The translations under genes were made by a program, and so were the position numbers. Below the pieces are notes generated by a model, which saw only the letters and a program-made list of their open reading frames with translations, ran no database searches and was not told the DNA's origin. Below, piece after piece: positions 1,325 through 20,880 of a stretch of DNA of 24,000 nt. Positions within the stretch are counted from its first letter, which is position 1; the number at the start of each line of letters is the position of its first letter. Source of the stretch: Hadesarchaea archaeon (GTDB lineage: Archaea; Hadarchaeota; Hadarchaeia; Hadarchaeales; Hadarchaeaceae); NCBI GenBank assembly GCA_029259175.1, contig JAPDJH010000004.1, positions 163,645-187,644 on the forward strand, read 5' to 3'.

Positions 1325-3208
1325 ATGGTGAGAGAGATGGGGTGTGCGATCATCAGGGAAGTCATCTTGGAGAACTTCATGAGCCATGAGTACTCGCGGA
1401 TTCCGCTCACGCCCGGATTGAATGTGATCTGTGGGCCCAACGGGGCGGGAAAATCGTCCATATTGCTGGGTATTGCGGTGGCGCTGGGTCAGAGCTATAC
1501 CGAGCGCTCAAAGCGCTTGGGCGATCTCATCATGCGCGGGAAGAAGCTGGCTCGGGTAAGTCTGGTGTTCGATAACCGGGCTGAGAACGGAAAGCGTCCA
1601 ATTCCCGAGATAAATTCTGACACCATTGTTTTGTCACGCTATCTGAGCAAGGACGGCACCTACTGGTATCAGATAAACAACCGCACAGTAACAAAGGGGG
1701 ATGTGCTGCGGTTGTTAGGTAGGTTATCGATAGATCCGGACAACATGCTCATCATCATGCATCAGAACATGATCGATGTGTTCGGAGCTACGGATGCGAG
1801 TGAAAAACTGCGGATGGTGGAGGAAGCAGTTGGGATCCAAAGCTATAGGGAAAAGATCATGGAAGCGCAACAAAAGCTCTCCCACACACTGAGCGAGGAA
1901 GAATCGGTAAGGGTGATGCTGCAAAAAGCCCAAGAAACGCTGCGCTACTGGGAGGGGGAGTACGAACGGCTCAAGCGCAAGCGCGAGCTCGAGCGAAGGA
2001 AAAAACAGTTGGAGTTGGAATACGCTTGGTCCAAAGTGGTGAGGCAGGAAAAGGCAGTAGCTGATCTCGAGAGACAGATAGAGAACATGAAAAACGAACT
2101 GGAAGGGGTAAGAGAAGAGCTGAAGAAATGGGACAAAAAACAGCACGTGTTGACTAACAAGTTGAGAGAGCTTGATAGTCAAGTGGACGGGCTGTATCGT
2201 CGGCTCGTGGAGATCGGTCGGTGGGAGGCAAGACATCAAACCAGGCTCGAGCTGCTAGAACGTGTACAAAAAATCGCTGAGCTGAAAGAGAACATGCATT
2301 TCTTGAAAGAGGAGGCCGAGAAGGCCAAAAAGGAGATGGCGGAGGTGGAGGGTCTTCTAAGCAAGGCCAAAAGAAAGAGAGAAGAAATCCAAAAATCGTT
2401 GATAGAGGCGAGTGCAAAAAGCGCAGTGTTAGAATTTCGGCAAGGGTTGTTGGAGCACGAGCTTTCGGATCTCAGGAGAGAACTGAGACGAGCGCGACGT
2501 GAGCTAGAAGAAACGACAGAGGAAGCACAGAAGATCGGGAGGCGTGTCGAAACCGCGCGAAAACCGCAGGAGGTGCTCGACGAACTGCGACTGGTGAACG
2601 CCCAGCTCGGCACGCTGGCAGACGTGCCGGCGGATGCTGAGCACATGTACCTCAGCTACAAATCGACGTTGAGAGAGCTGGAAAAGAAGGCGAGAGAGGT
2701 GGAGCGAAACAGACAGAGAGCACTCGAAGAGCTGGAGCTGCGCAAACAGCGATGGAGAGAGGAGATGGAACGATTGATTTCTGAGATCAACAAAGAATAT
2801 CGGAGGTTTTTGGAGCGAGTGGGGGGAACGGGTGAGATCTCGCTGGTTAACGCGGAAGATATCGAGAGCGCAGGGTTGGAACTCACGGTGGGATTCAAGG
2901 GCATAACGCCGCAGATCTTGGACGCATACACTCAGAGCGGAGGGGAGCGCACGACGGCTTTGATGTGCTTCTTGTTGGCGCTTCAAAGGAGGATAAAGTC
3001 GCCGGTGCGAGCGATCGACGAATTCGAGGCGCACTTGGATCCGAGGAATCGGGAAAATCTCTTCCAAAGCGTTGCGGAGGTCGCGAACAGCGACACGGCG
3101 CAGTACTTGGTGATAACACCCGGACGGCTGGCAGGTATTGAAAAAGCGTTCAATGTGATCGTGGTGCAAAGCGTTGGCGGGGTGTCCAAGGTGGGGGTGG
3201 TAACATGA
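1325..3208 (+). CDS. short SMC-family ATPase with SMC5/SMC6-like head motifs (about 627 aa, hinge-less short coiled coil)
   Basis: The start is placed at the in-frame ATG at 1325 (MVREMGCAIIREVILENFMSHE...), because the track start at 1172 overlaps the divergent gene. Walker A is GPNGAGKSS, the signature motif is QSGGERTTALMCFLLALQ, and Walker B/D-loop is VRAIDEFEAHLDPRNRENLF. About 280 aa of E/K/R/L-rich heptad-like sequence lies between the head halves, with no Cys hook and no Gly-rich hinge. ENFMSH, GKSSILLGIAVALG and the C-terminal head resemble SMC5/6 as I remember them. Confidence 0.85.
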   Translation: MVREMGCAIIREVILENFMSHEYSRIPLTPGLNVICGPNGAGKSSILLGIAVALGQSYTERSKRLGDLIMRGKKLARVSLVFDNRAENGKRPIPEINSDTIVLSRYLSKDGTYWYQINNRTVTKGDVLRLLGRLSIDPDNMLIIMHQNMIDVFGATDASEKLRMVEEAVGIQSYREKIMEAQQKLSHTLSEEESVRVMLQKAQETLRYWEGEYERLKRKRELERRKKQLELEYAWSKVVRQEKAVADLERQIENMKNELEGVREELKKWDKKQHVLTNKLRELDSQVDGLYRRLVEIGRWEARHQTRLELLERVQKIAELKENMHFLKEEAEKAKKEMAEVEGLLSKAKRKREEIQKSLIEASAKSAVLEFRQGLLEHELSDLRRELRRARRELEETTEEAQKIGRRVETARKPQEVLDELRLVNAQLGTLADVPADAEHMYLSYKSTLRELEKKAREVERNRQRALEELELRKQRWREEMERLISEINKEYRRFLERVGGTGEISLVNAEDIESAGLELTVGFKGITPQILDAYTQSGGERTTALMCFLLALQRRIKSPVRAIDEFEAHLDPRNRENLFQSVAEVANSDTAQYLVITPGRLAGIEKAFNVIVVQSVGGVSKVGVVT

Positions 3209-4011
3209 GGCGGAGCGAGCGGCGTGAATTATTGGAACGCGTCATAGAGCTGGCGGAAGCTGTTCGGTCAAAGGGGCTGGATCCGTTCGATGTTCGGGTG
3301 CGGGAGTTCTTCCAGAAGCTGCGCGAGCTGCTGCCGATGCTCCGAAGCTATGAGGAGTTGTTTCTGGATGCGCAGGCGGTATTGGGGCTCTCAGACGTTA
3401 TCCAGCACCAAGAGGAGTGGGTGAAACACCGCTCGTCGGTGCTCTATCTTGACCCGCTGCTGATAATGCTGAAGGTTCAAGCACTGGATTCTCAAGAGCT
3501 GGCCGAGATCTTTCTGAGGGTGTGGAAGCCGGTGGTGGAAGTGGAGGTGCTCTCGCCGGGCGGTCTGCGTGAGGCTCTGGACTACTGGACGGAACTCTCA
3601 CCGCTGAGTGAGCGGGCGAAAGAGCTGGAGGGAGGCGGTAAAGGGGTTTCAGCGATCGGTGAAAGGGAGCTGGAGCGGTGGGGGGTGCTGGAAAGGGAGG
3701 AGTTCGAAAAATTGTTGGAGAAAACGCGACGGGAACTCGAGAGAACGTGTGGGAAAGAGGGAAAGGTCTCCTACTGGGAGTTCGTGAAGGGCCCAAGTTA
3801 TGAGCAGACGGTAAAGCGGGCGTGGATGGTGAGCTTTCTGGTTTCCTATGGATACGCCGATCTCGAGCTTGATCCGCTAGAGGAGGAAATAACCATCCGG
3901 ATTCGGGGAGAGAGAGGGCAGCCGGAGGAGGTGAAGTCGCTCCCCATTGCGATCACGAAAGAATGGTGGAGGGGCAGATATGCAGGAAGAAGTGGCAGAG
4001 CTGCGGCATAA
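3205..4011 (+). CDS. kleisin-like (ScpA/Nse4-like) SMC bridging subunit
   Basis: Its start overlaps the SMC stop in an ATGA. The N-terminal helical segment is RRELLERVIELAEAVRSKGLDPFDVRVREFF. The C-terminal segment VKRAWMVSFLVSYGYADLELDPLEEEITIRI resembles the ScpA C-terminal winged helix. Its position between an SMC gene and a KITE-like gene supports the call. Confidence 0.6.
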   Translation: MRRSERRELLERVIELAEAVRSKGLDPFDVRVREFFQKLRELLPMLRSYEELFLDAQAVLGLSDVIQHQEEWVKHRSSVLYLDPLLIMLKVQALDSQELAEIFLRVWKPVVEVEVLSPGGLREALDYWTELSPLSERAKELEGGGKGVSAIGERELERWGVLEREEFEKLLEKTRRELERTCGKEGKVSYWEFVKGPSYEQTVKRAWMVSFLVSYGYADLELDPLEEEITIRIRGERGQPEEVKSLPIAITKEWWRGRYAGRSGRAAA

Positions 4012-4519
4012 GCTTGCACGGGCGGCACAGCTTCTGTTGTTCAAGCACCACATGCACCCAGGAGCGAAGCGGTGGGAGCTCCGGCGGGCGCTGGGACGAA
4101 ATTACGAGCAGGTCCTGCGGGCGCTCGATCAGGAGCTAAGCAAACTGGGGCTCAAGGTAAAAAAGGTAGAAGGGGGGGATGCGGATTCGGATCTCTTTGT
4201 AGTGACGTTCAAGGAGCACCCGCCGCTCAACGAGTTCCGCACGTTCGGGTGGAGAATAGACGATATGGCCATGCTGACGGCCGTGCTGGCCCATCTGGTG
4301 GTCAAGGGAGGGAAGGCTCCAGCGAAGGAAGTCATGCAGATACTGGAGGAAAAGTTTCCGAAGTGGCGAGTGCAGGCGGGGATCGATCGGTTTATCCGGA
4401 GGGGGTATCTGTCGGAGGACGACAAGGGGGTGCTTTACATAGGGTGGCGGACGAGGGCAGAGATCGATCAGCAAACGCTTGTCGGGCTTTTGCTGGGAAA
4501 GCCCGGTGAAAAGGGCTGA
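3980..4519 (+). CDS. MAGE/Nse3-like tandem winged-helix (KITE) protein, about 179 aa
   Basis: The start is taken at the in-frame ATG at 3980 (MQEEVAELRHKL...), overlapping the kleisin 3' end by 32 nt. WH-A is AAQLLLFKHHMHPGAKRWELRRALGRNYEQVLRALDQELSKLGLKVKKVEGGDADSDLFVVT. WH-B is MAMLTAVLAHLVVKGGKAPAKEVMQILEEKF...FIRRGYLSEDDKGVLYIGWRTRAEI. Both track the MAGE homology domain pattern remembered from human MAGE proteins (FLLxKY..EPxTKAEML...LxLVFGIELxEVD...YxLV, then LLxxVLxxIxxxGxxAPEExIWExL...LxYRQV....YEFxWGPRA). Confidence 0.65.
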   Translation: MQEEVAELRHKLARAAQLLLFKHHMHPGAKRWELRRALGRNYEQVLRALDQELSKLGLKVKKVEGGDADSDLFVVTFKEHPPLNEFRTFGWRIDDMAMLTAVLAHLVVKGGKAPAKEVMQILEEKFPKWRVQAGIDRFIRRGYLSEDDKGVLYIGWRTRAEIDQQTLVGLLLGKPGEKG

Positions 4520-4558: not shown

Positions 4559-4636
4559 GGGCCGGTAGCTCAGTCTGGTATGAGCGCTCGCTTCGCAAGC
4601 GAGAGGTCGCGGGTTCAAATCCCGCCCGGTCCACCA
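4559..4636 (+). tRNA. tRNA-Ala (anticodon CGC), genomically encoded CCA
   Basis: Hand-folded cloverleaf. The acceptor stem is GGGCCGG/CCGGTCC and includes the G3:U70 alanine identity pair. The D stem is GCTC/GAGC. The anticodon stem is CTCGC/GCGAG with loop TTCGCAA. The T arm is GCGGG-TTCAAAT-CCCGC, the discriminator is A, and CCA follows. Confidence 0.92.
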
Positions 4637-5557: not shown

Positions 5558-5630
5558 GGGCCCGTGGTCTAGTGGTTATGACGTCACCCTGACACGGTGG
5601 AGGTCGTGGGTTCGAATCCCACCGGGCCCA
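5558..5630 (+). tRNA. tRNA-Val (anticodon GAC)
   Basis: Hand-folded cloverleaf. The acceptor stem is GGGCCCG/CGGGCCC. The anticodon stem is TCACC/GGTGG with loop CTGACAC. The T arm is GTGGG-TTCGAAT-CCCAC and the discriminator is A. CCA is not encoded. A T-run follows. Confidence 0.9.
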
Positions 5631-5835
5631 CCTTTTCCGGCAACCGATTCTTTGAGAACAAGCGTCAGAAGCATCGGCCATTGAATCCCGTCTTTACAAC
5701 TTCTCCTACGTGGTCACTCTGCTGGCATATGGGTTTAGAGAAGAACAAGTTCAATTCCTCCGAGTATGGCGGGAGAAGAGCTGGCAGATCTTCACATCAA
5801 GCTCCGATTCCGACCGGATCTTCGCGCTCATACCG

Positions 5836-7609: not shown

Positions 7610-8366
7610 AATCTTCATCTACCGAGATCCGGATCCCAATATTTTAAAGTGGACAGAACTTCGGGAGTACCTCAAAAAAAGAGTTGGATGCACGGTTGAG
7701 ATCCGGGAGCCCCTCTTCAAGCAAAACGAGTCTCTAGCCCGAGCATTCGCTGCAGCACGAGTCCATGACCCGCTAAAGCCGCTTGCGAATCGTGAGCCTC
7801 TCCCATCAGAAATCCAAATCGAAGAGAAATTTCTTGGGGCGCAAAAGCAGATCCCAGGAGTGCTCTACGACGGCCTCGAGATCCAGCGCCTGTGCCTCGG
7901 ACTTCTGCCCGTTGGAGAGCGAACGAGAGACCATCTCCACCTCGTCTTCGTCAACCGATTGATCGGGACATATGAACAGGACGGCCGCTATCACATTCAT
8001 GCTGCAGTTTTCGGCTTTCCTACTCTATTGTCTGTGCAGGGAGTTGTTTTTGGACCTGCAAGGCCAAAAGAATACTACACCCTGCGAGGCCAACTGAGCG
8101 AGGAGGAACTCTACGAGCGGCTCGAGCGCCGCTTTCTCGTGCTGGACGATCCGAGGCTGACCGAGGTCGTCAAGGGTTACGCGATACAAGCCGTTTTCTA
8201 CCACGTCTTCGGAAACCCGTTCTGCGAGAACAGTCAGTGCCGTCTCTACAATGCCCGCTGGCAGGAAGAACTGCTAAAGGCCCAGCTCAGCTCCCCTGAG
8301 TTCTGCGAGCGTCACGAACAAATGCTGCAAGAGTTCAAATCCGAAATCACTGGCACGCCCTGCTAA
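7587..8366 (+). CDS. archaemetzincin-like protein with degenerate active site (function unknown)
   Basis: The C-terminal block [42 protein letters not shown] follows the archaemetzincin spacing HExxHxxGx3Cx4CxM..CxxC. However, the first His and the catalytic Glu are replaced (A, V), M becomes L, and the last CxxC becomes CxxH. The gene overlaps the thi4 3' end by 23 nt. Confidence 0.45.
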
Positions 8367-9037
8367 GTCGCTGCTAAGGACTCCAAAAAGTCACTCAGAT
8401 CCTCGTCCAGCGTTTTAAGCTCAACGATTCTTTCCATCTCCCGCTCAACCAGCTGCCGCAGACCAATTCTGGCCTCGATTTCGTTCACCTCCCTCCGCTT
8501 CGCTGCGGTTCGTGGACGGCGAGGTGTCGCATAACAGCAGCTGGCATGAGTCTCCCGCCAGAGCCCCAGCTGCTTGGCGAGACGCTCGATCTCCAGCTTA
8601 TCCATCGCGAGTAGCGGCCGGAGGATCGGATATCGAATGCCCGCCGACACCGCCTGCAGGTTCTGCAACGTCTGCGACGCCTTCTGGCCCAGCGATTCGC
8701 CCGTGACTATCCCCGACGCCTCCACACGATCACACAGGAGCTCAGCGGCCATCAGCATCCCACGACGGCACAGCACGCACGCGTGTCTGCCAGCTTGGCG
8801 GAGCACGCATCTCAAAACCCGGCTCCACGGAAAGAGAAATGCGCGGGCAAACCGTGTCTTCCTTTTTAAAACACGTAAAACATCCACTGCCACGTAGAAA
8901 TTATCCTCGCATGTGTAGGGATAAAGAGCAAAGTGCACGGGAACTACTTCGAAGCCACGGGCCGCAAGCGCACACGCGACCGGAGAGTCTATGCCCCCCG
9001 ACACCAAACACACGACGCGCTCCACCAGCATTCCCAT
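8363..9037 (-). CDS. ThiI-like PP-loop ATP pyrophosphatase, stand-alone (no THUMP or rhodanese domain)
   Basis: PP-loop VVCLVSGGIDSPVA. ThiI-like block TGESLGQKASQTLQNLQAVSAGIRYPILRPLLAMDKLEIERLAKQLG. Cysteines CVLC and SCC. Only 136 bp of non-coding sequence lies upstream, so there is no room for an N-terminal THUMP domain. Confidence 0.75.
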   Translation of the reverse strand: MGMLVERVVCLVSGGIDSPVACALAARGFEVVPVHFALYPYTCEDNFYVAVDVLRVLKRKTRFARAFLFPWSRVLRCVLRQAGRHACVLCRRGMLMAAELLCDRVEASGIVTGESLGQKASQTLQNLQAVSAGIRYPILRPLLAMDKLEIERLAKQLGLWRETHASCCYATPRRPRTAAKRREVNEIEARIGLRQLVEREMERIVELKTLDEDLSDFLESLAAT

Positions 9038-9075
9038 CGCCTCATCGGCGGCCGCCTATATCAACCATTCGTTTT

Positions 9076-9089
9076 TATAACAACGTTAT
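9076..9089. promoter_or_regulatory. TATAACAACGTTAT box upstream of the ThiI-like gene
   Basis: An identical 14-mer recurs at 23841-23854. A 12/14 variant, TATAACGGCGTTAT, lies at 20864-20877. It contains ATAAC-N3-GTTAT dyad symmetry overlapping a TATA-like element. Confidence 0.5.
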
Positions 9090-9173
9090 GAATAAACTCG
9101 AGTTAAAACAATTGGCCGGAAAGACCAATAATTACTTCGACTGGAGTTCCGCTCAAAAACCTGAAACCCTGAA

Positions 9174-10382
9174 TCATTTTGAAATACTCAATCCGTATTT
9201 CTCTGCAATTTCCAAAAACGCCTCTGCAACTTTTTCTATTCGCTCACGGCTTAACCCGTACGTGTTCAATTTGAAATGCTTGGTTAAACCAGGCTGAATA
9301 CCAACTATTCCTCGATCTCTCAACTCCTCGTACAGAAAGAATCCCCTGCGCTTGTGATGTCGGGAAACTTCGTACAAACCCTCGGACTCCATGTGGATCA
9401 GCGTGTGATCTTTGGGCCTGACACCCAGCTGCCGCGTCCCCTCTATGCGCTCGAGCTGTTCAACCAGCCACCGGGCGTTCTCCACCTCCTCCGGCCATCT
9501 CTCGACTCGCTCGACCACGTGGGGAAAGGAGGCCATCATCGAAATGAGAGGACCACCCATCACGGTACAACCAAGCAGCGCGTATTCTTTTATGCTAAAC
9601 TTCCGTCCTGTCAGATCTCCCACGATCTGTGACGGCGCGAGCACTCGCTTCGCCATCTCCTTGGTCAGCGCAAGTACACCGGTGGAGGCACTCGCTGCCC
9701 AAGATTTATGACCGCTCCCTGTAATGATATCCGCTCCGAGCTCTCTCCCATCGATGGGCATCACACCCGCCGTGTAAGCGGCATTCAGCAAAAACGGAAC
9801 TTCGTACTCGTGAGCTATCTCTGCCACCCGTCTGGCATCGTTCAAATTGCCGTAGAGATAGTCCACATGGGTCAAAACCACGACCGCAGGCAATTTTCCG
9901 GTTTCGCGCTTTACCTCTTCTATCTTTGCCGCATAAGCATCGAGATCTACTCGAAATTCCGGATACCCGCTGTTCGGGACCTCTTTAATCTTCATCATGG
10001 CAAGCTCGGCCGCAACGTAGGTGGAATAGTGGGCCAGGCTGTCGATTACCACCACATCCCCCGGTCTACCAAGCATTCTGAACGCTATGAACTGCGCCTC
10101 GCGACACCGGGTCACGACACGCGCCACATCCATTCCAAGAAATTCCGCCAAGTCTTCAACGAAATCCGCTATGGGAGGCCGGGTAACCTTATCCAACCGG
10201 GGGGTTTTTGCAGGGCACCAATCACACGTAGAATACCCATCCCCAAATTCTGCCAATGCTTCTCTCGCCTCAGCGGTAAGAACCCCTCCACGCTGAATTG
10301 GATTGAGGTTGATATACCGATCCTCCTTAAAATCTCTCCTCAGATTCCGATACTTCTTCAGTCTCTCTTCGGAAAGCTTCAT
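9174..10382 (-). CDS. pscS: O-phosphoseryl-tRNA(Cys):Cys-tRNA synthase (SepCysS)
   Basis: The N-terminus is KYRNLRRDF..INLNPIQRGGVLTAEAREAL..FGDGYSTCDWC. The PLP-lysine block is ITGSGHKSWAASASTGVLAL. The 402-aa length and these motifs match SepCysS as I recall it from Archaeoglobus and methanogens. Its start overlaps the stop of the upstream E1 gene by 4 nt. Confidence 0.8.
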   Translation of the reverse strand: MKLSEERLKKYRNLRRDFKEDRYINLNPIQRGGVLTAEAREALAEFGDGYSTCDWCPAKTPRLDKVTRPPIADFVEDLAEFLGMDVARVVTRCREAQFIAFRMLGRPGDVVVIDSLAHYSTYVAAELAMMKIKEVPNSGYPEFRVDLDAYAAKIEEVKRETGKLPAVVVLTHVDYLYGNLNDARRVAEIAHEYEVPFLLNAAYTAGVMPIDGRELGADIITGSGHKSWAASASTGVLALTKEMAKRVLAPSQIVGDLTGRKFSIKEYALLGCTVMGGPLISMMASFPHVVERVERWPEEVENARWLVEQLERIEGTRQLGVRPKDHTLIHMESEGLYEVSRHHKRRGFFLYEELRDRGIVGIQPGLTKHFKLNTYGLSRERIEKVAEAFLEIAEKYGLSISK

Positions 10383-11173
10383 CCTCTACTCCTCCGGCCG
10401 CATATCTCACAGTGGGGATCGCGCTCAACTTTCATTACTTCAAACACCATCTCCATACCATCAAATATTAGCAACCGGCCTATCAATGGTCTCCCAAGAC
10501 CTGTGATCAGTTTTATCGCTTCCATTGCCTGCAAACAACCTATCACGCCCGGGGTTGCTCCGAGTACCGGGAATGCCCGCTTTCGCGGCGGGAGTGACGG
10601 AACCAAACACTGCAAACACGGCCCCTTCTTGGGCACAATAGTCATCAGCTGACCCAGGGTTCCCTCCACGGCCCCGTGAACAAGTGGAATTCTGTGCTTT
10701 ACACAGGCTCGGTTCAGCGCATACCTAGCAGGATAGTTGTCCGTGGCATCCACCACCACATCGGCACCGCGCACAAGAGGGTCCGCATTTTCGTTTGCCA
10801 CATGCAGAGATTTTCCCCTCACCCGCACATTTGGATTGAGAGCTCTCAGCTTCTCCATCGCCGAATCAGTTTTCTGGCGTCCGATGTCTTTATCCCAGTG
10901 CAAAATCTGACGATTGAGATTTGAGAGCTCTACTCGCTGATCGTCCACGAGCGTTAGCTTCCCCACACCCGCCGCTGTCAAATAAATACTGACCGGAGAC
11001 CCCAGACCGCCCAATCCTACAACCACCACATGCGCTCGCTTCAATTTGAGCTGACCTTTCCGACCAAAACCCGCAATCAACATCTGCCGACTATAACGTT
11101 CGAGTTCTTGAGGAGACAGTTTAGTCCTCATACCATTACCCTTTGGACTCCTGCTAAAAATACTTCCAACCAT
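10379..11173 (-). CDS. ThiF/MoeB/UbaA-type E1-like adenylyltransferase (no rhodanese domain)
   Basis: ERYSRQMLIAGFGRKGQLKLKRAHVVVVGLGGLGSPVSIYLTAAGVGKLTLVDDQRVELSNLNRQ. There are two CxxC pairs (CLQC and CEIC). The internal ATG at 11131 (MRTKLSPQELERYSRQ) is an alternative start. Confidence 0.9.
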   Translation of the reverse strand: MVGSIFSRSPKGNGMRTKLSPQELERYSRQMLIAGFGRKGQLKLKRAHVVVVGLGGLGSPVSIYLTAAGVGKLTLVDDQRVELSNLNRQILHWDKDIGRQKTDSAMEKLRALNPNVRVRGKSLHVANENADPLVRGADVVVDATDNYPARYALNRACVKHRIPLVHGAVEGTLGQLMTIVPKKGPCLQCLVPSLPPRKRAFPVLGATPGVIGCLQAMEAIKLITGLGRPLIGRLLIFDGMEMVFEVMKVERDPHCEICGRRSRG

Positions 11174-11176
11174 CGG

Positions 11177-11935
11177 TCAAGATTTTATACCGGGAACGAC
11201 TCCTCCACCAACCGGGACGGGACTCCTCTCATCAAAGGTTATAATCTCTGGAACCTCGCCCCAAACACCCACGTGTTCTCCACGTATTATCAGACATCCT
11301 TCTATCTCACGTATCCGGCTAGCCCGGTTCAACCCGTCTAAAATCGACTGTCGTGTGTCGGAACCGCGCACAGAATTCGCAACCGAAGTCGCAGCAGCGT
11401 CAGCTACCGAAGCCTCTCGGGCAAAGACCACGGTGGCGTCGGCATCGCCAAAACTAATCGAGTGTCCGATCGAACCAGAACTCGTACATATTCCGAGCGG
11501 CAATCTGGCCGATTTTATCAGAAAACCCAACTTACTGGATGTGCTGGCGGTGCCCGCATAAACTCCTACTATAAAATCTCGATCTCCCGCTATCGCAATG
11601 TCTCCACCATTTTCGACCAGCACATTCCTCGCTCCTTGCTCCAGAGCGGCCTCCATGGCTATCTGAGAAATCGCTCCGGCAACCGCTGCAAAAGGACCGA
11701 CCCGCGCAAGCTTTCCGGCCCTCAACATCAGCTCGATCACCCGCGGGTGTTCTCCCTCGAGCTCAACGGGTTCAAGTGACCAACGAAACTCTGGATAGGT
11801 CACAGCATAACGCTCCACCTCTTGTCTGGCCCTCAATGCCGCTTCTACCGCTGCATCGATCGCGCGCGCGTCGTCGGATTTTATAGTGAGTGCAGTCTCC
11901 TTGTAAACCCAGCGCTGAACGAGCAAATCCACCAC
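11177..11935 (-). CDS. UPF0280/COG2122 (ApbE-like) protein, MA1715-type sulfide-assimilation factor
   Basis: Blocks GPFAAVAGAISQIA, LVENGGDIAI, GICTSSGSIGHSISFGDADA and SVADAAATSVANSV match what I recall of the UPF0280 family. It lies between the NIL-ferredoxin and E1 genes. Confidence 0.6.
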   Translation of the reverse strand: MVDLLVQRWVYKETALTIKSDDARAIDAAVEAALRARQEVERYAVTYPEFRWSLEPVELEGEHPRVIELMLRAGKLARVGPFAAVAGAISQIAMEAALEQGARNVLVENGGDIAIAGDRDFIVGVYAGTASTSSKLGFLIKSARLPLGICTSSGSIGHSISFGDADATVVFAREASVADAAATSVANSVRGSDTRQSILDGLNRASRIREIEGCLIIRGEHVGVWGEVPEIITFDERSPVPVGGGVVPGIKS

Positions 11936-11936
11936 C

Positions 11937-12332
11937 TCACAACCTCGGAATCTTCAAAGCGCGCACCGGACACGCAGGAACACAGATCTCACACAAAACA
12001 CACTTCTGCTCATCCAGACCCAGCGAGGCATCCTCTTTCAGATACAATGCCTTGGTTGGACAGAGCGAAACACAAGCCCCACAGTGAACGCAGGAATCCC
12101 AGTCCACCCTGATCGCGTCTTTTATCTCTTGAAATTCTATTCCGCGTTTCGAGAGAGCGCTAAAAATCCGCTCCGCGTCCGAGTCCTTAACGGAAATCAG
12201 GATCTCCCCACCCTTTGTGTCCATGTCCGCATACAGGATGTTTACCAACACTCCCGTCTCTTTAATCACCGAAGCCAAAACAGGCTCCGCCGCTTTCTCC
12301 GCCGAGTATCGAAGCAAGATCCGCCTCGTCAT
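11937..12332 (-). CDS. NIL-domain / 2x[4Fe-4S] ferredoxin fusion (MA1822-type)
   Basis: An N-terminal NIL-like beta-alpha domain (RILLRYSAEKAAEPVLASVIKETGVLVNILYADMD) is followed by CVHCGACVSLCP and CVLCEICVPACP. Its start overlaps the upstream gene's stop by 4 nt. Confidence 0.8.
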   Translation of the reverse strand: MTRRILLRYSAEKAAEPVLASVIKETGVLVNILYADMDTKGGEILISVKDSDAERIFSALSKRGIEFQEIKDAIRVDWDSCVHCGACVSLCPTKALYLKEDASLGLDEQKCVLCEICVPACPVRALKIPRL

Positions 12333-13831
12333 TTTCTCCCACCTCCAATCAGCTTTGAAATATCATCGCTCGTCACTATCCCCCTGAGCCTGCCGCGAGC
12401 ATCAACAACCGGAACACCAGAGATCCCGAATTTATCCAGCTTTCTTGCAACGGCATCTATGGGCTCGTCTTCCCGCGCGGTTATCACCTGCCGTGTCATT
12501 ATTTCCGAAAGCTTCTGCTTGCCCTTTCCCACCGAAACCGCAATATCCCACGAAGTCACTATCCCGATCACGCGGTTTTCATCGTCCACAATGGGGAGGT
12601 GATCAAAGTTCTTCTCCGCGAATATCCGAGCCGCTTTGGTGATCGGATCCTCCGGCCTACCTACGACCACTTCGCGGGTCATTACCGCACCTGCCGTTAT
12701 GATCCGCGTCGGCTGTTTCATCGGGCGGAACTCCATATCCACAGGAAGCTGGCGCACCGGAGCGGTGAGGGAAAACTCCCCTCGCTCTATCAGCTCCTTG
12801 AGTTTCTCAGCGATTTCTCTCGCCACTTTGAGACTGCTGAGCGGACTGACCGGGACTTCCCGACCGTTCAATTCGATCTTGCCCTCCCACAGCTCCGCAT
12901 AGGTCAACTGCTTGAGCACCGGCCTGTCCCGTCGCGGAACTCCGTAGTCGAGCAAATCAATTTTAATCTCCTCATTGCTCCTGCCAGCGGTCCTCGCCAA
13001 ATCCTCGTCTAGAATCGGTATCGGAATCCCGATACCCACAAACAGCGATGTTCCATAGCGATGGATGTTCGCGCCACGCAGATACCGGGGTGACATCTCT
13101 TTTAAATCGCCCACCGTCATCAGCGTGCCCAGCTCTCGCTTCGGATCGTGCTGAGTGCCTTCCCAAACCACATATCCCTGAGCTCCGCCAATGAAAATTC
13201 GAGTTCCCGTGCCAATGGTCCGATAGGTGGGGTCTTTGTTCAGCGGACTGAGTTCCCCAGTACCAGCAAACGTAACGTTTCTGAATTCTGGAAGCAGGGT
13301 GCCCATATAGGTATAAATGGTCTCCTTCCGTGAATTGGTGGCAGCAACGTATCGTTGGTGAGCGTTTCTCGGATTCAGCAAAACGGCTTGGTTGAGGTCA
13401 TGGATGGTTATGGTCGTCTCCAGCTCCCTGCGCGGATAGCAATCGGTCCCGTATGCCAGAGCCCTAACATGGATCTCTTCGCCTCTGACCAAGTCCTCGA
13501 TCACGTGGCCTCCTCCATAGTCGAACCCCCGGGTTTCACTCAGCTGTGCGGCACCGATATATGCATCGACTGCTGCCACCCCTGTATACGCTTCGACATC
13601 GTTGAGCCAAACGCGTTGCATCTTGATGGGCGGATCAGCGTGCCCAAAGTTTAGCCAGGCACCCGAGCTACACATCGCACCAAACGTCCCGGTGGTCACC
13701 ACATCAACTTCTTTTGCCGCTGCTACGGCCCCCTTGCTCTTGACTATCTCGACCATCTCCTCGGCGGTAACGACCACGGCATCTCCACGCCTGATGCGCT
13801 CGTTGATTTCCTCGATTGTTTTCTTAACCAT
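12329..13831 (-). CDS. COG1900/DUF39 homocysteine-biosynthesis enzyme with two C-terminal CBS domains (MA1821/MJ0100-type)
   Basis: N-terminus KKTIEEINERIRRGDAVVVTAEEMVEIV...VDVVTTGTFGAMCSSGAWLNFGHADPPIKM. The C-terminal tandem CBS repeats are VMTREVVVGRPEDPITKAARIFAEKNFDHLPIVD and IMTRQVITAREDEPIDAVARKLDKFGISGVPVVD. Confidence 0.8.
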   Translation of the reverse strand: MVKKTIEEINERIRRGDAVVVTAEEMVEIVKSKGAVAAAKEVDVVTTGTFGAMCSSGAWLNFGHADPPIKMQRVWLNDVEAYTGVAAVDAYIGAAQLSETRGFDYGGGHVIEDLVRGEEIHVRALAYGTDCYPRRELETTITIHDLNQAVLLNPRNAHQRYVAATNSRKETIYTYMGTLLPEFRNVTFAGTGELSPLNKDPTYRTIGTGTRIFIGGAQGYVVWEGTQHDPKRELGTLMTVGDLKEMSPRYLRGANIHRYGTSLFVGIGIPIPILDEDLARTAGRSNEEIKIDLLDYGVPRRDRPVLKQLTYAELWEGKIELNGREVPVSPLSSLKVAREIAEKLKELIERGEFSLTAPVRQLPVDMEFRPMKQPTRIITAGAVMTREVVVGRPEDPITKAARIFAEKNFDHLPIVDDENRVIGIVTSWDIAVSVGKGKQKLSEIMTRQVITAREDEPIDAVARKLDKFGISGVPVVDARGRLRGIVTSDDISKLIGGGRK

Positions 13832-13897
13832 GCCCGTCTCACCCTCCCCATTCTCGATAGTTATATTTATAAAGTTTTTTTATTCCTGCTAGTTATA

Positions 13898-15493
13898 TCA
13901 AAACTCTCCACGCCGAATTTCCTCAATTTGCTGAACAAACTTGCGATATGCCTCCGTTTGCTTCAGCCGGTCCACATCCCGCTTGTACAGATCGTCCTGA
14001 AGCCTGCGTCCCGTCCTGCGCTCCCACTCCTCAATCGGAATCCCCTGGCTCTCTTGGTCCTTGTCCCGATACCACTCCGGAATGACATTGAACGCACAGA
14101 ACGGAATCACGCGCTTGTCAGTCATCGCGTAGTGAATACAGCAGCGCTTCACGCGTTCGATGTCGTAGTTGTACAAATCCATGAAGTGCATCATCCCGAT
14201 AAACAGACTCTTCATGTGGAACTGGCCGAGCGCATCGTAATTGTGCTTTATGAAAATGTTGTAGAGAATCTTATTGATATCCAGATCCTTCGGTTTTTGT
14301 TTGCCATCTATGAACTTGCCGATGCTGGCCAGCAGCTTGAGGCCCACCCATCGCTTGCTCTTCCCTTGCCTCAGCTCCTCCGTCTTCTCCTTCAGGTACT
14401 CCAGCAGGCCCTCAACATCGATGAACCGGGTGATCGGAATCAGCTTTCCGTTCTCTTTGAACACGTACGTCGCCGCACCGCAGGCGAAGTGGGAACTCAG
14501 ATCATAAGTGGGGTGACCCACAAGCGCCTCCACGAACTCGCTGATTATCATAGCAGTGGGGACCGGGAAGAAATCCTCCATCGTTATGGCCCCGTCGGTC
14601 TGCTCCTCTATCCGCTTGATTACATCAGGGATAGTGATGCGGTACTTGTCCCGCTCCTTCCGCGGCATGCGGCCCACCAGCGCCACCGGCTGAAAGTTCA
14701 CACTCCGGACGATGTCCATGTTCTTGAACCCGTACTTGAGGATGTCGCCGACCTCGTGATCGTTGACTGACTTAATCACCGTCGGCACCAAGACGATTCC
14801 GAGTCCCACCTTGCGGGCGTTCTCTATGGTCAATGGCACCTCCCAGTGGTTTTTCGGATTGGCTTGTTCTGAAACCCCATCAAAGCTGAGGTAGAGGGTG
14901 TTCACCCCTGCTTCCCGAACCCGCTTCACCAGCTCGGGATCGAACGCCAGCCGTATCCCATTGGTGTTGAGCTGAACGTGGTCGATCCCGTGCTTTTTCA
15001 CTATTTTAATGATGTCCACCAAATCGTCTCGAAGAAGCGGCTCTCCCCCCGTAAGCTGAACTGCGTTGCAGGCAATCGGGCGCTCACTTCTGATGACTCC
15101 CACCATCTCGTCGATTTGTTCCAGCGTCGGCTCGTAGACGTAGCCCACCTTACGGGCGAAAAAGAAGCAATACCAGCAACTGAGGTCGCAGCGGTTCGTA
15201 ACCACTATGTTCGCAAGCGCCGTGTGGCTCTTGTGGAGCTTGCAGAGACCGCAGTCTCGGGGACAGACGGGCGCCTCTTTGGTCACCTGCGGGTTCTCAA
15301 TTCCCTTCCCGTCCTTCGCGTAGCGCTCCGCCCGTCGATACCATTCATAGGATCCGTGGTACAAATCCTCAAATTCGCCGTGTTCCGGACAGGTTTTCTT
15401 GATCCACACCTTGCCGTCTCGTTCAAAGATAGTGGCCGGAAGGGTTCTCAAGCACTCCGGACAAAGCGAGGCGGTCTTTCTAATTTCTTGCAT
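13898..15493 (-). CDS. radical SAM enzyme with N-terminal Cys4-type ribbon and auxiliary cluster motif; MJ0619/Tes (tetraether lipid synthase)-like family
   Basis: CPEC...CPEHG ribbon, CPRDCGLC auxiliary motif, and the radical SAM CxxxCxxC motif (NRCDLSCWYC). GGEPLL is present. The length is 531 aa. The radical SAM call is firm. The Tes/GDGT-MAS family assignment is from memory of that family's N-terminal architecture. Confidence 0.8.
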   Translation of the reverse strand: MQEIRKTASLCPECLRTLPATIFERDGKVWIKKTCPEHGEFEDLYHGSYEWYRRAERYAKDGKGIENPQVTKEAPVCPRDCGLCKLHKSHTALANIVVTNRCDLSCWYCFFFARKVGYVYEPTLEQIDEMVGVIRSERPIACNAVQLTGGEPLLRDDLVDIIKIVKKHGIDHVQLNTNGIRLAFDPELVKRVREAGVNTLYLSFDGVSEQANPKNHWEVPLTIENARKVGLGIVLVPTVIKSVNDHEVGDILKYGFKNMDIVRSVNFQPVALVGRMPRKERDKYRITIPDVIKRIEEQTDGAITMEDFFPVPTAMIISEFVEALVGHPTYDLSSHFACGAATYVFKENGKLIPITRFIDVEGLLEYLKEKTEELRQGKSKRWVGLKLLASIGKFIDGKQKPKDLDINKILYNIFIKHNYDALGQFHMKSLFIGMMHFMDLYNYDIERVKRCCIHYAMTDKRVIPFCAFNVIPEWYRDKDQESQGIPIEEWERRTGRRLQDDLYKRDVDRLKQTEAYRKFVQQIEEIRRGEF

Positions 15494-15596
15494 TCTCCCT
15501 ATTTATCACCCCGTAGTGGCAATTTAAAGATTTGCCCACCCGTTCCCGATTCTAACAAAAAGATTTAGCGATGATTACCAAAGTTGGATTGAGACG

Positions 15597-16787
15597 ATGG
15601 AAAGCCCCTCCGCAAATCTCGTGCAGCAGGCTTTTCGAGAAAACCGGGAGCTCGCCCTCCGTTTGAGATCTCTCATCGATAGGCGCGGCACCGAAGTCGT
15701 GAAAAAAATGGGACTCGATCGAATCAAGATCATGAACTTCTGCGGGACCCACGAATGGACGACCGTGCACTACGGGCTCCGGTCCTTCCTACCCCCTTTT
15801 ATAGAGCTCGTTGCTGGCCCGGGCTGTCCCGTGTGCGTCACGCCCGGACACTACGTGCAAGAGGCTGTAAAGCTGGCAATGGACGGCGTAATAGTCTACA
15901 CCTATGGGGACTCCTTCAAGCTGAGGAGCACTTCAGGCCCCGGACCGCAGAGCTTGGCGGAAGCGCGGGCATCCGGGGGCGAGGTCCGGGTTGTGTACAG
16001 TTTCTTGGACGCCATAAGAGATGCGAAAAAACACGGAAAGCCATCTGTGTTCTTCGGTGTTGGATTCGAGACCACTGTGCCAGCATATGGATTTCCCCTT
16101 ATTCAAAACCATGTGCCAGAAAATCTGAAGTTTCTCTCCGTCTGCCGGCTGACACCGCCTGCGATGAAATACACCATCAAGCTGCACCAAGAGCGAGGCC
16201 TCCTGCCTATTTCTGGGGTCATCGCACCTGGACACGTGTCAACCATCATAGGTGCTGGAGAATGGGAGTTCCTCCCACGCGATTATTGTATGCCCACGGT
16301 AGTCGCCGGATTTGAACCGCTCGATGTTTTGATCGCTATCGCTCGGATTCTACAAATGGTGAAGAACAAGAAACCGGCCGTGGCGAATGAATACAGTCGC
16401 CTCGTACGCTGGGACGGAAACCCTGAAGCGAAGAAGGTGATCGAAGAAGTATTTGTTCCGACGTTTGCAGCGTGGCGCGGAATGGGATTCATTCCAAGGA
16501 GCGGACTCAGGCTCCGAGACCGGTATCAAAAACACGACGCATTTGTTCATTTCGGGATTAAGGATGTCGAACCGTCTAAATACGCGTTCACCCATGCGCA
16601 CTATGGGAGCCCGCCCGAAGCCGATTTGCCGCCCAACTGCAAGTGCGGCGAAGTCGTGACAGGCATATCGAAACCGACTGACTGTCCGCTGTTCATGCGT
16701 GGATGCACCCCCTCCAATCCGTGGGGGCCGTGCATGGTCTCCGTAGAAGGAACATGCATGATCTGGGCCAGGGAAAGGGGAGGATAA
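15597..16787 (+). CDS. hypD: [NiFe]-hydrogenase maturation protein HypD
   Basis: FCGTHEWT, GPGCPVCVTP, GFETT and PGHVS motifs, plus the C-terminal CKCGEV...CPLF..C...GPCMVSVEGTC. Confidence 0.9.
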   Translation: MESPSANLVQQAFRENRELALRLRSLIDRRGTEVVKKMGLDRIKIMNFCGTHEWTTVHYGLRSFLPPFIELVAGPGCPVCVTPGHYVQEAVKLAMDGVIVYTYGDSFKLRSTSGPGPQSLAEARASGGEVRVVYSFLDAIRDAKKHGKPSVFFGVGFETTVPAYGFPLIQNHVPENLKFLSVCRLTPPAMKYTIKLHQERGLLPISGVIAPGHVSTIIGAGEWEFLPRDYCMPTVVAGFEPLDVLIAIARILQMVKNKKPAVANEYSRLVRWDGNPEAKKVIEEVFVPTFAAWRGMGFIPRSGLRLRDRYQKHDAFVHFGIKDVEPSKYAFTHAHYGSPPEADLPPNCKCGEVVTGISKPTDCPLFMRGCTPSNPWGPCMVSVEGTCMIWARERGG

Positions 16788-16789
16788 AA

Positions 16790-17575
16790 ATGTGCCTAGG
16801 AGTGCCAGCGCGTGTAGAAGAGGTGCGCGGAATCACAGCGATTGCAGATTTTGGAGGGATCAAACGTGAAATCTTGGTCGGAGTGAAAGATTTGCAGCCG
16901 GGCGATCTGGTGATGGTTCATGCGGGAATGGCTATCGGCAAGCTCACGGAGGAAGCCGTGATAGAAAATCTAATGGTGTACAAAGAGCTTTTCGTTGCCG
17001 AGTCCTTGATGCGGGGGGAAAGCGAGGAAAGTGCAAAAAGAACCGCTGAGAAAGAAATAGAGAAAATTCTGGAAGAGTTGGGAGTGGAAAAACCCATGAT
17101 CAAAGAAACAGAGGACGTCAGAACAGCCGAGCAGGTGGAAACGCCCATTCCGCCCAATGCGTTCAAGCGCAGGTATCGGGCCTCGCTCTCTGATACGGAC
17201 TACCTGCAAGTGATGCACTACACCAACTATCTGCGCTATTGTGAGCGCGCACAACAAGAGCTGCTGGACTCTATAGGGTTCGGGTACGCCAAGCTGATCC
17301 ACCAACACGGTCTTTTCATCCCTACTGTTGAAACCTCTATCAGGCTCAAGGGACCCATCAGGCTGGACAACGAATTTGAGGTTGCCGTGTGGGTGGAAGA
17401 AATCGGTCGAAAACACATCCGCTTTAAAAACGTGATAAGGAACCTCACGTCTAACAAGATTGTGGCCGAAGCAACGACCATAGCGGTCTGCACCGACATC
17501 AGTCTGATGGAGGGGATGGAGCTTCCGGCAGAACTGGTGGAAAAACTCAGGCCATACATGGAGGGTGCGAAATGA
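16790..17575 (+). CDS. HypC-family chaperone fused to a 4HBT/YbgC-type hotdog thioesterase domain (261 aa)
   Basis: The start is at the ATG at 16790, 2 nt after the hypD stop and preceded by GGGAAAGGGGAGGA. The N-terminus MCLGVPARVEEV...GDLVMVHAGMAI is a hallmark HypC domain (Cys2, His). An acidic linker covers about aa 75-125. The C-terminal part is RRYRASLSDTDYLQVMHYTNYLRYCERAQQELLDSIGFGYAKLIHQHGLFIPTVETSIRLKGPIRLDNEFEVAVWVEEIGRKHIRFKN, which is the 4-hydroxybenzoyl-CoA thioesterase pattern including the DTD Asp. Confidence 0.85.
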   Translation: MCLGVPARVEEVRGITAIADFGGIKREILVGVKDLQPGDLVMVHAGMAIGKLTEEAVIENLMVYKELFVAESLMRGESEESAKRTAEKEIEKILEELGVEKPMIKETEDVRTAEQVETPIPPNAFKRRYRASLSDTDYLQVMHYTNYLRYCERAQQELLDSIGFGYAKLIHQHGLFIPTVETSIRLKGPIRLDNEFEVAVWVEEIGRKHIRFKNVIRNLTSNKIVAEATTIAVCTDISLMEGMELPAELVEKLRPYMEGAK

Positions 17576-17883
17576 GGGTGAAGGTGAGGCTGTTCGCGAA
17601 CTTCAGAGAGGTGATGGGGACGGGAAATCTCGAAGTTGAAAACGTGCACAATATCGGGGAGCTGCTAAGCAAACTCACCGAGATGAAAAGAGAAATGGAA
17701 AAAGAACTCTACTACCCCGGCACAAAAGAACTCGTAAAAACGGTGCAGATAATGCACAACGGAAAAAACGTCAAATTACCCCAGGGTCTTGAAGCGGAGC
17801 TGAAAGAGGGCGACGAGATTGCAATATTTCCGCCCGTGGCCGGGGGAGAGGGCTCGAACACATCAGCTTCTCATGTCTCTTAA
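17572..17883 (+). CDS. MoaD/ThiS-family ubiquitin-like sulfur carrier encoded as a pro-protein (GG followed by an 11-aa tail)
   Basis: The start overlaps the upstream stop in an ATGA. The C-terminal region DEIAIFPPVAGG is the classic MoaD end, but the ORF continues EGSNTSASHVS before the stop. The last 21 nt overlap the convergent XdhC-like gene. Confidence 0.85.
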   Translation: MRVKVRLFANFREVMGTGNLEVENVHNIGELLSKLTEMKREMEKELYYPGTKELVKTVQIMHNGKNVKLPQGLEAELKEGDEIAIFPPVAGGEGSNTSASHVS

Positions 17884-18660
17884 ACTTCTGCCGCTCGCAT
17901 CCGGTCTGCGCAGTACTTTGATGATTTCAGCCATTATGCTGACGGCGATTTCCGCTGGTGTTTCGGCGCCGATATCGAGACCCACTGGGGCATGAACACG
18001 TTCCAACCACTCTTTGGACACCCCGTCACGCACCAAACGTTCAAAGGTCATCTGGATTCGGGTCCTGCTGGCTAGCCACCCCACATAACGTGCGCGTGAG
18101 CCGGACAGCGCTTTGAGCGCCTCTTCATCTCCTTTGTGTCTCGATGCAATAACCACAAAGGTGTTTTCGTCGACTTCGATCTCGCGCGCGGCTTGTTCAA
18201 TCGGTTTCTGAAGCACTTTCACTCCTTGGAACTCGGAAGGATCAAGCGCAGGATCGACCACTGTGACTTGAAAGCCGTTTCTCTTTCCCAGCTCCGCCAG
18301 CTCGCGTCCCACGTGACCACCGCCGACTATCAAAAGCTTTGGTGGAGGGAGTATGGGCTCGATGTAGAGCCGAACAGTCCCGCCGCATTCCATTCCTACA
18401 CCGCCTCTAGACTCTTCAACCAAATCCAACTCGATCAACTTAGGCTGGCGTGTTCTGAGCACCTCAAGGGCCTCGTTCACCGCACTGCTTTCTATACAAC
18501 CGCCGCCGATGGATCCGATGGTCGAACCGTCTGGAAGAACGAGCATCTTTGCGCCCAGATCACGGGGAGAGGATCCCTTACGCCCGACCACAGTCACTAC
18601 GGCGAAGGGCTTTCCTTCAGCCATCAGTCGTCCCATTTCCGCAAGCACCTTGGGCTCCAT
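17863..18660 (-). CDS. XdhC/CoxI-family accessory protein (XdhC_CoxI N-domain plus Rossmann-like C-domain)
   Basis: FAVVTVVGRKGSSPRDLGAKMLVLPDGSTIGSIGGGCIESS, then LLIVGGGHVGRELAELGKRNGFQVTVVD and PVGLDIGAETPAEIAVSIMAEI. Confidence 0.85.
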   Translation of the reverse strand: MEPKVLAEMGRLMAEGKPFAVVTVVGRKGSSPRDLGAKMLVLPDGSTIGSIGGGCIESSAVNEALEVLRTRQPKLIELDLVEESRGGVGMECGGTVRLYIEPILPPPKLLIVGGGHVGRELAELGKRNGFQVTVVDPALDPSEFQGVKVLQKPIEQAAREIEVDENTFVVIASRHKGDEEALKALSGSRARYVGWLASRTRIQMTFERLVRDGVSKEWLERVHAPVGLDIGAETPAEIAVSIMAEIIKVLRRPDASGRSLRDMRS

Positions 18661-18685
18661 CCATTCTCCTTTTCTTCTAAAATTT

Positions 18686-19120: not shown

Positions 19121-19310
19121 AACACGCCTCTCCTTACTAAGAATTTTTTGGATATGGTGAAAATGTGCGCGTAGTGCTGTGAAAAATCGGGATATGCTTG
19201 TGTGGAATTCAAAGATGACTTCGTTGAGATAAGCTCGGAACGGCAAGACTCTTAAAGGAAGAATGGAGTCTGCTTGTCTCCAAGATTCAGAACGGAAAAC
19301 TCACGGCCCG

Positions 19311-20519: not shown

Positions 20520-20559
20520 CTACATCTCCATCTCTGTGATTCAATAAAACTGTAGAGGC

Positions 20560-20848: not shown

Positions 20849-20861
20849 GAGGCTGAAAATA

Positions 20862-20880
20862 TTTATAACGGCGTTATAAA
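20862..20880. promoter_or_regulatory. palindromic double TATA element (TTTATAACG-G-CGTTATAAA) serving divergent RNase P RNA and the 20893 CDS
   Basis: This is a perfect 19-bp palindrome. Each arm carries a TTATAA box about 25-30 nt from the start of the unit transcribed away from it: the RNase P 5' end at about 20848, and the ATG at 20893 if that transcript is leaderless. Confidence 0.55.

Follow-up and report, generated by a model that had tools for sequence, protein, structure and literature searches.

Archaeal SMC proteins related to eukaryotic SMC5/6 were defined by Yoshinaga & Inagaki (2021) under the name 'SMC5/6-related aSMC'. Operons in which the gene for such an SMC is joined by genes for Nse4-like and Nse1/3-like proteins were described by van Hooff, Raas, Tromer & Eme (bioRxiv 10.1101/2024.01.07.573240). 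The published examples come mainly from TACK archaea and from a few Euryarchaeota, including Hadarchaeales, and in published phylogenies these archaeal SMCs, kleisins and kites group with SMC5/6, Nse4 and Nse1/3, respectively. No experimental work on archaeal SMC5/6-related members was found in the searchable literature.

We analysed a 24,000-nucleotide stretch of the Hadesarchaea archaeon contig JAPDJH010000004.1 (hereafter, the window), which contains an operon with the same gene set in the same order as the published archaeal complexes and no essential difference from them. For Hadesarchaea WYZ-LMO6, van Hooff et al. list an 'SMC5/6-related' cluster (contig QNVD01000244.1) that is orthologous to the window operon, the KITE proteins being 64% identical over the aligned region. 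The novelty implied in the original prediction was therefore misplaced, since the system, Hadarchaeales examples included, is already in print. Hinge loss, an arm of ∼21 nm and a divergent neighbouring gene for a 234-aa protein, on the other hand, go unmentioned in the searchable text of both studies. We consider it probable (roughly 0.85) that the operon represents, in Hadarchaeota, the archaeal 'SMC5/6-related' SMC complex, a compact assembly related to SMC5/6, which maintains chromosomes in eukaryotes.

The three genes are located on the forward strand and encode an SMC ATPase of 627 aa (positions 1325–3208), a kleisin of 268 aa (3205–4011) and a tandem winged-helix KITE protein of 179 aa (3980–4519). 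All three ORFs are present with the coordinates and lengths originally given, and these three genes are also called in independent assemblies. The predicted coupling is borne out by the junctions, both of which overlap: the tetranucleotide ATGA is common to the SMC stop and the kleisin start, and the KITE ATG at 3980 lies 32 nt within the kleisin gene, preceded by the Shine-Dalgarno-like run GGTGGAGGGG, which resembles a ribosome-binding site.

The SMC protein displays a bipartite ABC-type head and an antiparallel coiled coil. Its N-terminal head lobe (approximately residues 8–170) carries the Walker A motif GPNGAGKSS (37–45) and the Q-loop glutamine (Q147), while the C-terminal lobe (approximately 497–627) contains the signature QSGGER (537–542) and the Walker B residues DE (565–566). 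The head motifs quoted in the original prediction (ENFMSH, GKSSILLGIAVALG, QSGGERTTALMCFLLALQ and VRAIDEFEAHLDPRNRENLF) can all be found in the translation. The protein matches Pfam SMC_N with 117 bits, and all five ATPase motif positions examined in the family alignment (Walker A, Q-loop glutamine, signature and Walker B) are invariant. In the AlphaFold2 model (pLDDT 84) the head is connected to a single hairpin of ∼143 residues, or ∼21 nm, composed of a helix (172–314), a six-residue turn (315–320) and a return helix (321–404), with joint-like breaks at 405–413 and 431–437. The central hinge dimerisation domain expected of kleisin-binding SMCs is absent: no Pfam match to SMC_hinge was obtained, and the apex of the model is the six-residue turn itself. 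Cysteines occur only at positions 7, 36 and 548, and the 627-aa sequence contains no CxxC motif of a zinc hook. The model, the Pfam scan and the cysteine positions thus agree with the earlier description of a coiled coil of about half the normal length, devoid of both hinge and zinc hook. Across the family the apex is rich in indels and variable in length, and the total length of the SMC is 579–664 aa in all 64 loci in which its ORF is full-length. The one literature match for a 'hinge-less SMC' concerned marine Actinobacteria, not archaea.

In order to place the SMC among its relatives, we ranked its matches in the PDB. Yeast SMC5 was the top match of the single sequence (108 bits). The family profile scored highest against SMC5 (201 bits) and SMC6 (189–190), followed by Pyrococcus Smc (143), SMC1–4 (97–125) and Rad50 (41). 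A profile restricted to the head gave 156 and 123 bits for SMC5, 111–113 for SMC6, 102–104 for Pyrococcus Smc and ∼48 for Rad50; here the lead of SMC6 over Pyrococcus Smc is narrow (113 versus 104 bits). The alignment of the C-terminal head lobe to yeast Smc5 includes QSGGER...DE...ITP. These HMM score rankings, on which the assignment is based together with orthology to the published WYZ-LMO6 cluster, support a head nearer to SMC5/6 than to SMC1–4, canonical Smc or Rad50, as had been proposed. A Foldseek search with the SMC model retrieved SMC heads with the joint, that of Pyrococcus Smc first, and did not separate the subfamilies.

The length and short coiled coil of the SMC also resemble those of ASRPs, and it matches the NCBIfam models for ASRP (75 bits) and Rad50 (70 bits), so that the gene product could be viewed as an SMC-related protein of Rad50 or ASRP/ClsN type, encoded beside two unrelated winged-helix proteins by chance. 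This is extremely improbable. Both scores are far under the respective cut-offs of 300 and 1000, Rad50 is the lowest in the PDB rankings, and no Mre11 gene is nearby. The zinc hook typical of ASRPs and Rad50 (PMC9389158) is missing from the SMC, which has no CxxC. Moreover, its two neighbours resemble Nse4 and Nse1/3 in particular, and they accompany the SMC gene in every retrieved locus where one contig spans the three genes. Assignments of the SMC as Rad50, ASRP, arcadin-4, RecN, LmuB or JetC were all rejected, the scores being far below cut-offs or defining features missing.

The kleisin had been described as ScpA/Nse4-like, and it is the Nse4 side of this description that proved significant. 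The C-terminal winged helix of the window protein (approximately residues 185–235) matches Pfam Nse4_C (E = 0.0016), as do 16 of 21 family members, the best with E = 9e-6. When the family profile was searched against the PDB, Nse4/EID3 proteins were the only significant matches (E = 5.7e-6 to 6e-4; EID3/NSE4B at 5.7e-6, yeast Nse4 at 2.2e-4), with ScpA marginal (E = 0.067) and confined to the N-terminus, where the helical domain is weakly ScpA-N-like. The gene adjacent to the SMC thus encodes an Nse4-related kleisin.

The KITE protein is predicted to consist of two winged-helix units (AlphaFold2, pLDDT 80). Foldseek placed Nse3, NSE1 and MAGE-G1, -A3, -A11 and -A4 at the top of the ranking for this model (best match Nse3, 7dg2_C; E = 5.6e-8, TM 0.66), with JetB (E = 2e-4), MukE and ScpB lower. 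A profile built from diverse relatives collected in a representative search matched Nse3, MAGE-G1 and NSE1 in the PDB with E values of 1e-5 to 3e-3, and neither ScpB nor MukE was among its matches. Recognition of the KITE requires such a profile or a structure model: scans of the single window sequence against Pfam, NCBIfam and PADLOC returned no match, Pfam MAGE (PF01454) included at E ≤ 1, and a profile restricted to Hadarchaeota found nothing relevant in the PDB. Among 35 KITE relatives, Pfam SMC_Nse1 was matched by eight, MAGE weakly by two (0.021) and ScpB weakly by one. Although the Pfam MAGE model is not matched at its gathering score, the predicted fold agrees strongly with those of MAGE, Nse3 and Nse1, and the protein adjacent to the kleisin is therefore a KITE of the Nse1/3 type, not ScpB-like and not a member of Pfam MAGE. 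The MAGE/Nse3-like character originally proposed accordingly holds for the diverse profile and the fold, while the qualification 'sequence-recognisable' has to be dropped. No RING domain is present in the 179 aa.

The architecture and operon logic are shared with Smc–ScpAB, in which the SMC is, as here, presumably homodimeric, and the operon might be taken for a divergent canonical Smc–ScpA–ScpB condensin whose likeness to SMC5/6 is superficial. The Foldseek lead of the Pyrococcus Smc head and the weakly ScpA-like kleisin N-terminus point in this direction, as does SMC_prok_A, the best NCBIfam model for the SMC. The latter, however, scores 226 bits, far short of its cut-off of 729; the SMC lacks a hinge and its arm measures ∼21 nm, compared with 49 nm for Smc–ScpAB (PMC5526789). 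The kleisin C-terminus is Nse4_C, matches to Nse1 and MAGE outnumber the single ScpB match among the KITE relatives, and neither ScpA nor ScpB was matched by the window proteins in Pfam. Furthermore, van Hooff et al. report separate ScpB-like kites in all four sampled Hadarchaeales genomes, and a separate canonical Smc–kleisin–ScpB cluster in WYZ-LMO6. A canonical condensin is thus very unlikely, and the SMC5/6-related assignment is retained.

In order to survey the distribution of the operon, GTDB species genomes were scanned with a 16-sequence subset of the 35-sequence KITE alignment. Relatives of the KITE are encoded in 332 of these genomes, and loci were retrieved from 80. Among these loci, every contig long enough to include the three genes keeps the order SMC–kleisin–KITE and the tight or overlapping junctions, which is far beyond what would be expected by chance. 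The operon is thus conserved in the 80 genomes examined, which belong to Hadarchaeota and Thermoproteota, and in Hadarchaeota the flanking synteny is kept as well (34 of 34 species loci retrieved). The operon is chromosomally encoded and part of the core genome. The surrounding genes have housekeeping roles (tRNAs, NadA, Thi4, NUDIX and PHP-domain proteins). Near the operon we found neither a JetD/Toprim nuclease nor any other effector, and further Nse-like genes were not seen in its flanks.

This context bears on the rival view that the operon is a Wadjet-like or Lamassu-like SMC defence system against plasmids or viruses that surveys extrachromosomal DNA; a Wadjet-like system was also raised in the original prediction. 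Wadjet JetABCD and MukBEF are likewise SMC–kleisin–KITE complexes, and the KITE is structurally related to JetB and MukE, JetB being among its fold matches. Eukaryotic SMC5/6 restricts viral episomes (PMC9458440), and the SMC has weak PADLOC matches to mad3 (101 bits), LmuB (65) and JetC (34; coiled coil only). Neither the kleisin nor the KITE, however, matches any PADLOC profile, including JetA, JetB and LmuC, and in the fold ranking JetB lies below Nse1, Nse3 and MAGE. The conservation of operon and synteny in Hadarchaeota is unlike that of a mobile defence island, and a housekeeping context without a nuclease does not support a Wadjet-like function. We regard a defence system as improbable and favour the relative of SMC5/6.

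Upstream of the operon, a divergent ORF on the reverse strand (563–1267) encodes a conserved protein of 234 aa with no assigned function, its start codon being 57 bp from that of the SMC. Of 27 Hadarchaeota loci, 23 have this gene next to the operon in divergent orientation, as do 4 of 30 TACK loci. No match to the protein was found in Pfam, NCBIfam, PADLOC or the PDB, and comparison by hhalign showed that it is neither a further KITE nor a paralogue of the kleisin (probabilities of 0.3% and 0.2%, respectively). The gene is possibly a co-regulated partner of the operon and a candidate accessory factor. A generalisation that the family, as sampled in Hadarchaeota and TACK, is uniformly a hinge-less ∼21-nm 'mini-SMC' with its kleisin and KITE, linked in Hadarchaeota to the 234-aa protein, is tentative and rather doubtful.

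With eukaryotic SMC5/6 the window operon shares a similar SMC head sequence (for example QSGGER...DE(F/I)...MD(P/S)RN and ...ITP), a kleisin with an Nse4-type C-terminal winged helix and a tandem winged-helix KITE of Nse1/Nse3/MAGE type. It differs in having one SMC gene instead of the SMC5/SMC6 pair and one KITE, without RING, instead of Nse1 and Nse3; Nse2 and Nse5/6 were not seen in the operon or its flanks. The SMC is hinge-less and 627 aa long, compared with 1,091–1,114 aa for full-length yeast and human SMC5 and SMC6 chains in the PDB.

The homology of the three proteins, the conservation of the operon and its hinge-less SMC are results of the analysis; how many copies assemble, where they touch, whether they clamp DNA and what they do in the cell we deduce by analogy with solved SMC5/6 and Smc–ScpAB structures. 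The products would most likely assemble as SMC2 : kleisin1 : KITE2, with the kleisin contacting both SMC heads: one at its coiled-coil neck, through the N-terminal helical domain, and the other at its cap, through the Nse4-like winged helix at the C-terminus. A KITE dimer would be seated on the middle of the kleisin, and engagement of the heads, driven by ATP, might then clamp dsDNA between them and the module of KITE and kleisin. Lacking a hinge, the SMC would have to dimerise through heads, kleisin and KITE, or through arm–arm contacts. To our knowledge, a hinge-less SMC is without precedent among solved kleisin-bound complexes, so the SMC dimer assumed here could be wrong. The role of the complex is probably in DNA repair, or in the management of replication forks or junctions, beside canonical Smc–ScpAB, rather than in defence.

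The operons represent a prokaryotic sister of eukaryotic SMC5/6–Nse1/3/4 and show that the lineage of SMC5/6, together with its KITE of MAGE type and its kleisin of Nse4 type, is older than eukaryotes, a point already in print. The structural detail added here, for the 64 loci whose SMC ORF is complete, is that the SMC lacks a hinge and that its arm falls short of half the normal length, which poses the question of how a kleisin-SMC acts without a hinge. With single copies of the three subunits adding up to ∼1,070 residues, this minimal system is attractive for the biochemistry of SMC5/6-type clamping and for cryo-EM, and the 234-aa protein, if its link to the complex is true, may be a new fourth subunit. 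If the hinge-less architecture is ancestral, the hinge and long arms of SMC5/6 would be secondary acquisitions; alternatively, they were lost in this archaeal lineage. In either case, if the architecture is as described, a kleisin-bound SMC would be able to clamp DNA close to its heads with no need of a hinge for dimerisation.

Translation of the window returned exactly the three ORFs of the original prediction, all on the forward strand: an SMC ATPase gene (1325–3208, 627 aa), a kleisin gene (3205–4011, 268 aa) and a gene for a tandem winged-helix (KITE) protein (3980–4519, 179 aa). All SMC motifs quoted there were found in the translation. The SMC stop and the kleisin start share an ATGA, and the KITE ATG lies 32 nt within the kleisin gene, preceded by GGTGGAGGGG. 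Identical three-gene calls are present in independent assemblies, and all three proteins have their nearest named relatives in Hadarchaeota metagenome-assembled genomes. The 3' end of the operon is marked by the genes for tRNA-Ala(CGC) (4559–4636, + strand), 40 bp 3' of the KITE stop, and tRNA-Val(GAC) (5558–5632, + strand), ∼1 kb further on.

The SMC protein matches Pfam SMC_N with 117 bits. In NCBIfam, SMC_prok_A scores best, but its 226 bits fall far short of the cut-off of 729; ASRP (75 bits against 300), Rad50 (70 against 1000) and arcadin-4 also stay under theirs and were rejected as assignments. When all PDB sequences were searched with the single protein, the top match was yeast SMC5 (108 bits). 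Two family profiles were then compared, one of 18 full-length members from Hadarchaeota and TACK, the other restricted to the head, with the coiled-coil contribution removed. Full-length scores (head-only scores in brackets) were 201 bits for yeast and 164 for human SMC5 (156 and 123), 189–190 for SMC6 (111–113), 143 for the Pyrococcus Smc head (102–104), 124 for SMC2 (88–98), 120 for SMC1 (72–77), 110 for SMC3 (78–88), 97 for SMC4 (67–74), 99–100 for B. subtilis Smc (77–79) and 41 for Rad50 (about 48). Judged from this ranking of sequence scores, the head is nearest to SMC5/6, as originally predicted, rather than to archaeal Smc or Rad50, though SMC6 leads archaeal Smc only narrowly. In Foldseek searches the SMC model matched true SMC heads with a joint, and subfamilies were not separated.

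The kleisin had been described as ScpA/Nse4-like, and the evidence falls on the Nse4 side. Alone, it matches Pfam Nse4_C with E = 0.0016, under the gathering score, and in the PDB it matches EID3/NSE4B and yeast Nse4 best, with E-values that are marginal. A profile of 21 members matched EID3/NSE4B (5.7e-6) and yeast Nse4 (2.2e-4) in the PDB, and ScpA only at 0.067, confined to the N-terminal helices; Nse4_C was detected in 16 of the 21. The KITE protein has few relatives (134 among 1.84 billion representatives in an exhaustive profile search). Its predicted resemblance to MAGE/Nse3 was not apparent from the window protein alone, which has no match in Pfam, NCBIfam or PADLOC, nor did a Hadarchaeota-only profile find anything in the PDB, but it was recovered with a profile of 35 diverse members and by structure. 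That profile matched the MAGE-domain Nse3 7dg2_C (1.2e-5), human MAGE-G1/NSE3 (7e-4 and 1.7e-3) and NSE1 (2–3e-3) in the PDB, and neither ScpB nor MukE; in Pfam, SMC_Nse1 was hit by 8, MAGE by 2 and ScpB by 1 of the 35 members. AlphaFold2 predicts a tandem winged helix (pLDDT 80), for which the top Foldseek match is Nse3 (E = 5.6e-8, TM 0.66), followed by NSE1, MAGE-G1, MAGE-A3, MAGE-A11 and MAGE-A4, and then by JetB, MukE and ScpB.

The predicted half-length coiled coil is borne out by the AlphaFold2 model of the SMC protein (pLDDT 84), which consists of two head lobes and a coiled-coil hairpin: an outgoing arm formed by one continuous helix (172–314), a six-residue turn at the apex (315–320) and a return helix (321–404), with joint-like breaks at 405–413 and 431–437. 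A hinge domain appears neither in the Pfam scan nor in the model, and a zinc hook is likewise absent: the protein has just three cysteines, at 7, 36 and 548. The 143-residue arm measures about 21 nm, whereas that of canonical Smc is 49 nm (PMC5526789). Counted from the ENFMS motif, SMC lengths at loci from the best 80 of the 332 genomes described below are 621–638 aa in Hadarchaeota and 579–664 aa in TACK; therefore, the short hinge-less arm is a family trait, not a truncation. The apex is the region richest in indels in the family alignment. Two TACK loci (L049 and L071) encode even shorter SMCs of about 585 aa, lacking ∼40–80 alignment columns around the coiled-coil apex; arm length is thus plastic within the family.

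When one genome per GTDB species was scanned, a KITE relative was found in 332; the best 80 belong to Hadarchaeota, then Thermoproteota (Nitrososphaeria, Bathyarchaeia, Methanomethylicia and Geothermarchaeales). The operon is conserved in these 80: on every contig of sufficient length, SMC, kleisin and KITE follow in this order with tight or overlapping junctions. One related locus (L028, JASEJC010000012.1) and a related protein (P0125) carry the label 'Candidatus Hodarchaeaceae', an Asgard family. The L028 operon and its upstream 234-aa gene are typical of Hadarchaeota (identity to the window's proteins is 60% for the SMC and 65% for the aligned part of the KITE; the upstream gene matches with 372 bits), and the label is probably a Hodarchaeaceae/Hadarchaeaceae naming slip. 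A Wadjet-like defence system had been offered as an alternative. However, the operon is flanked by housekeeping genes (tRNA-Ala, tRNA-Val, NUDIX, NadA, Thi4 and PHP-domain proteins), its flanks contain no nuclease or other effector, and PADLOC found no JetA, JetB or LmuC at the operon; the defence reading was therefore rejected.

Divergent from the operon, with 57 bp between the start codons, lies a gene for a 234-aa protein (563–1267, − strand), which adjoins the operon at 23 of the 27 loci from Hadarchaeota and at 4 of the 30 from TACK. The protein has no relative in Pfam, the PDB, NCBIfam or PADLOC, comparison shows it to be neither a KITE nor a kleisin relative, and its large family is annotated as 'hypothetical' throughout; it may be an accessory factor. 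The remaining stretch (8363–23522) is densely packed with sulfur, cofactor and metallocentre genes unrelated to the SMC operon (ThiI-like, SepSecS/aminotransferase-like, ThiF, HcyBio+CBS, NIL-ferredoxin, radical-SAM with zinc ribbon, XdhC, Prok-JAB, two cysteine desulfurase-like and IscU-like, among others). It includes an unusual fusion (16790–17575, + strand) of a HypC/HupF hydrogenase-maturation domain (residues 1–61) with a 4HBT-type thioesterase domain (∼133–253), directly 5' of which lies HypD (15597–16787).

The original observation is confirmed and its SMC5/6-like interpretation supported. Homology is shown for all three proteins, their genes are coupled, and the ATPase motif set is invariant across the SMC family alignment. 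By analogy with solved SMC5/6 and Smc-ScpAB structures, the kleisin would bridge an SMC dimer asymmetrically, neck to cap, a KITE dimer would be seated on the kleisin, and DNA would be clamped through ATP-dependent head engagement. As the SMC has no hinge, its dimer would have to form through heads, kleisin and KITE or else through arm-arm contacts. The system probably acts in chromosome maintenance or repair beside canonical Smc-ScpAB.

Such systems are already known. Yoshinaga & Inagaki (2021) defined 'SMC5/6-related aSMC' (80 of 512 archaeal SMCs, mostly from TACK, some from Euryarchaeota), and van Hooff et al. (bioRxiv 2024, version 2 2025) showed that a second operon, in which an SMC5/6-related SMC is encoded together with an Nse4-related kleisin and an Nse1/3-like kite, is present in many archaea, proposing duplication of the whole complex before eukaryogenesis. 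In Supplementary Table 3 of that work, Hadarchaeales genomes are recorded as encoding SMC5/6-related SMCs together with Nse1/3-related kites, and ScpB-like kites at other places in the genome; the table also names the Hadesarchaea WYZ-LMO6 cluster QNVD01000244.1_4/5/6. The same contig was recovered in our scan (L020), its KITE being 64% identical to that of the window over the aligned region; thus, the operon finding is a correct rediscovery. The searchable text of both papers mentions neither hinge loss or a half-length arm ('hinge' occurs in general introductions only, 'shorter' and 'truncated' not at all) nor the divergent 234-aa gene, and no experimental work on archaeal members was found in the searchable literature. 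The evolutionary point is already in print. Worthwhile leads are the minimal architecture without a hinge and the conserved 234-aa neighbour.
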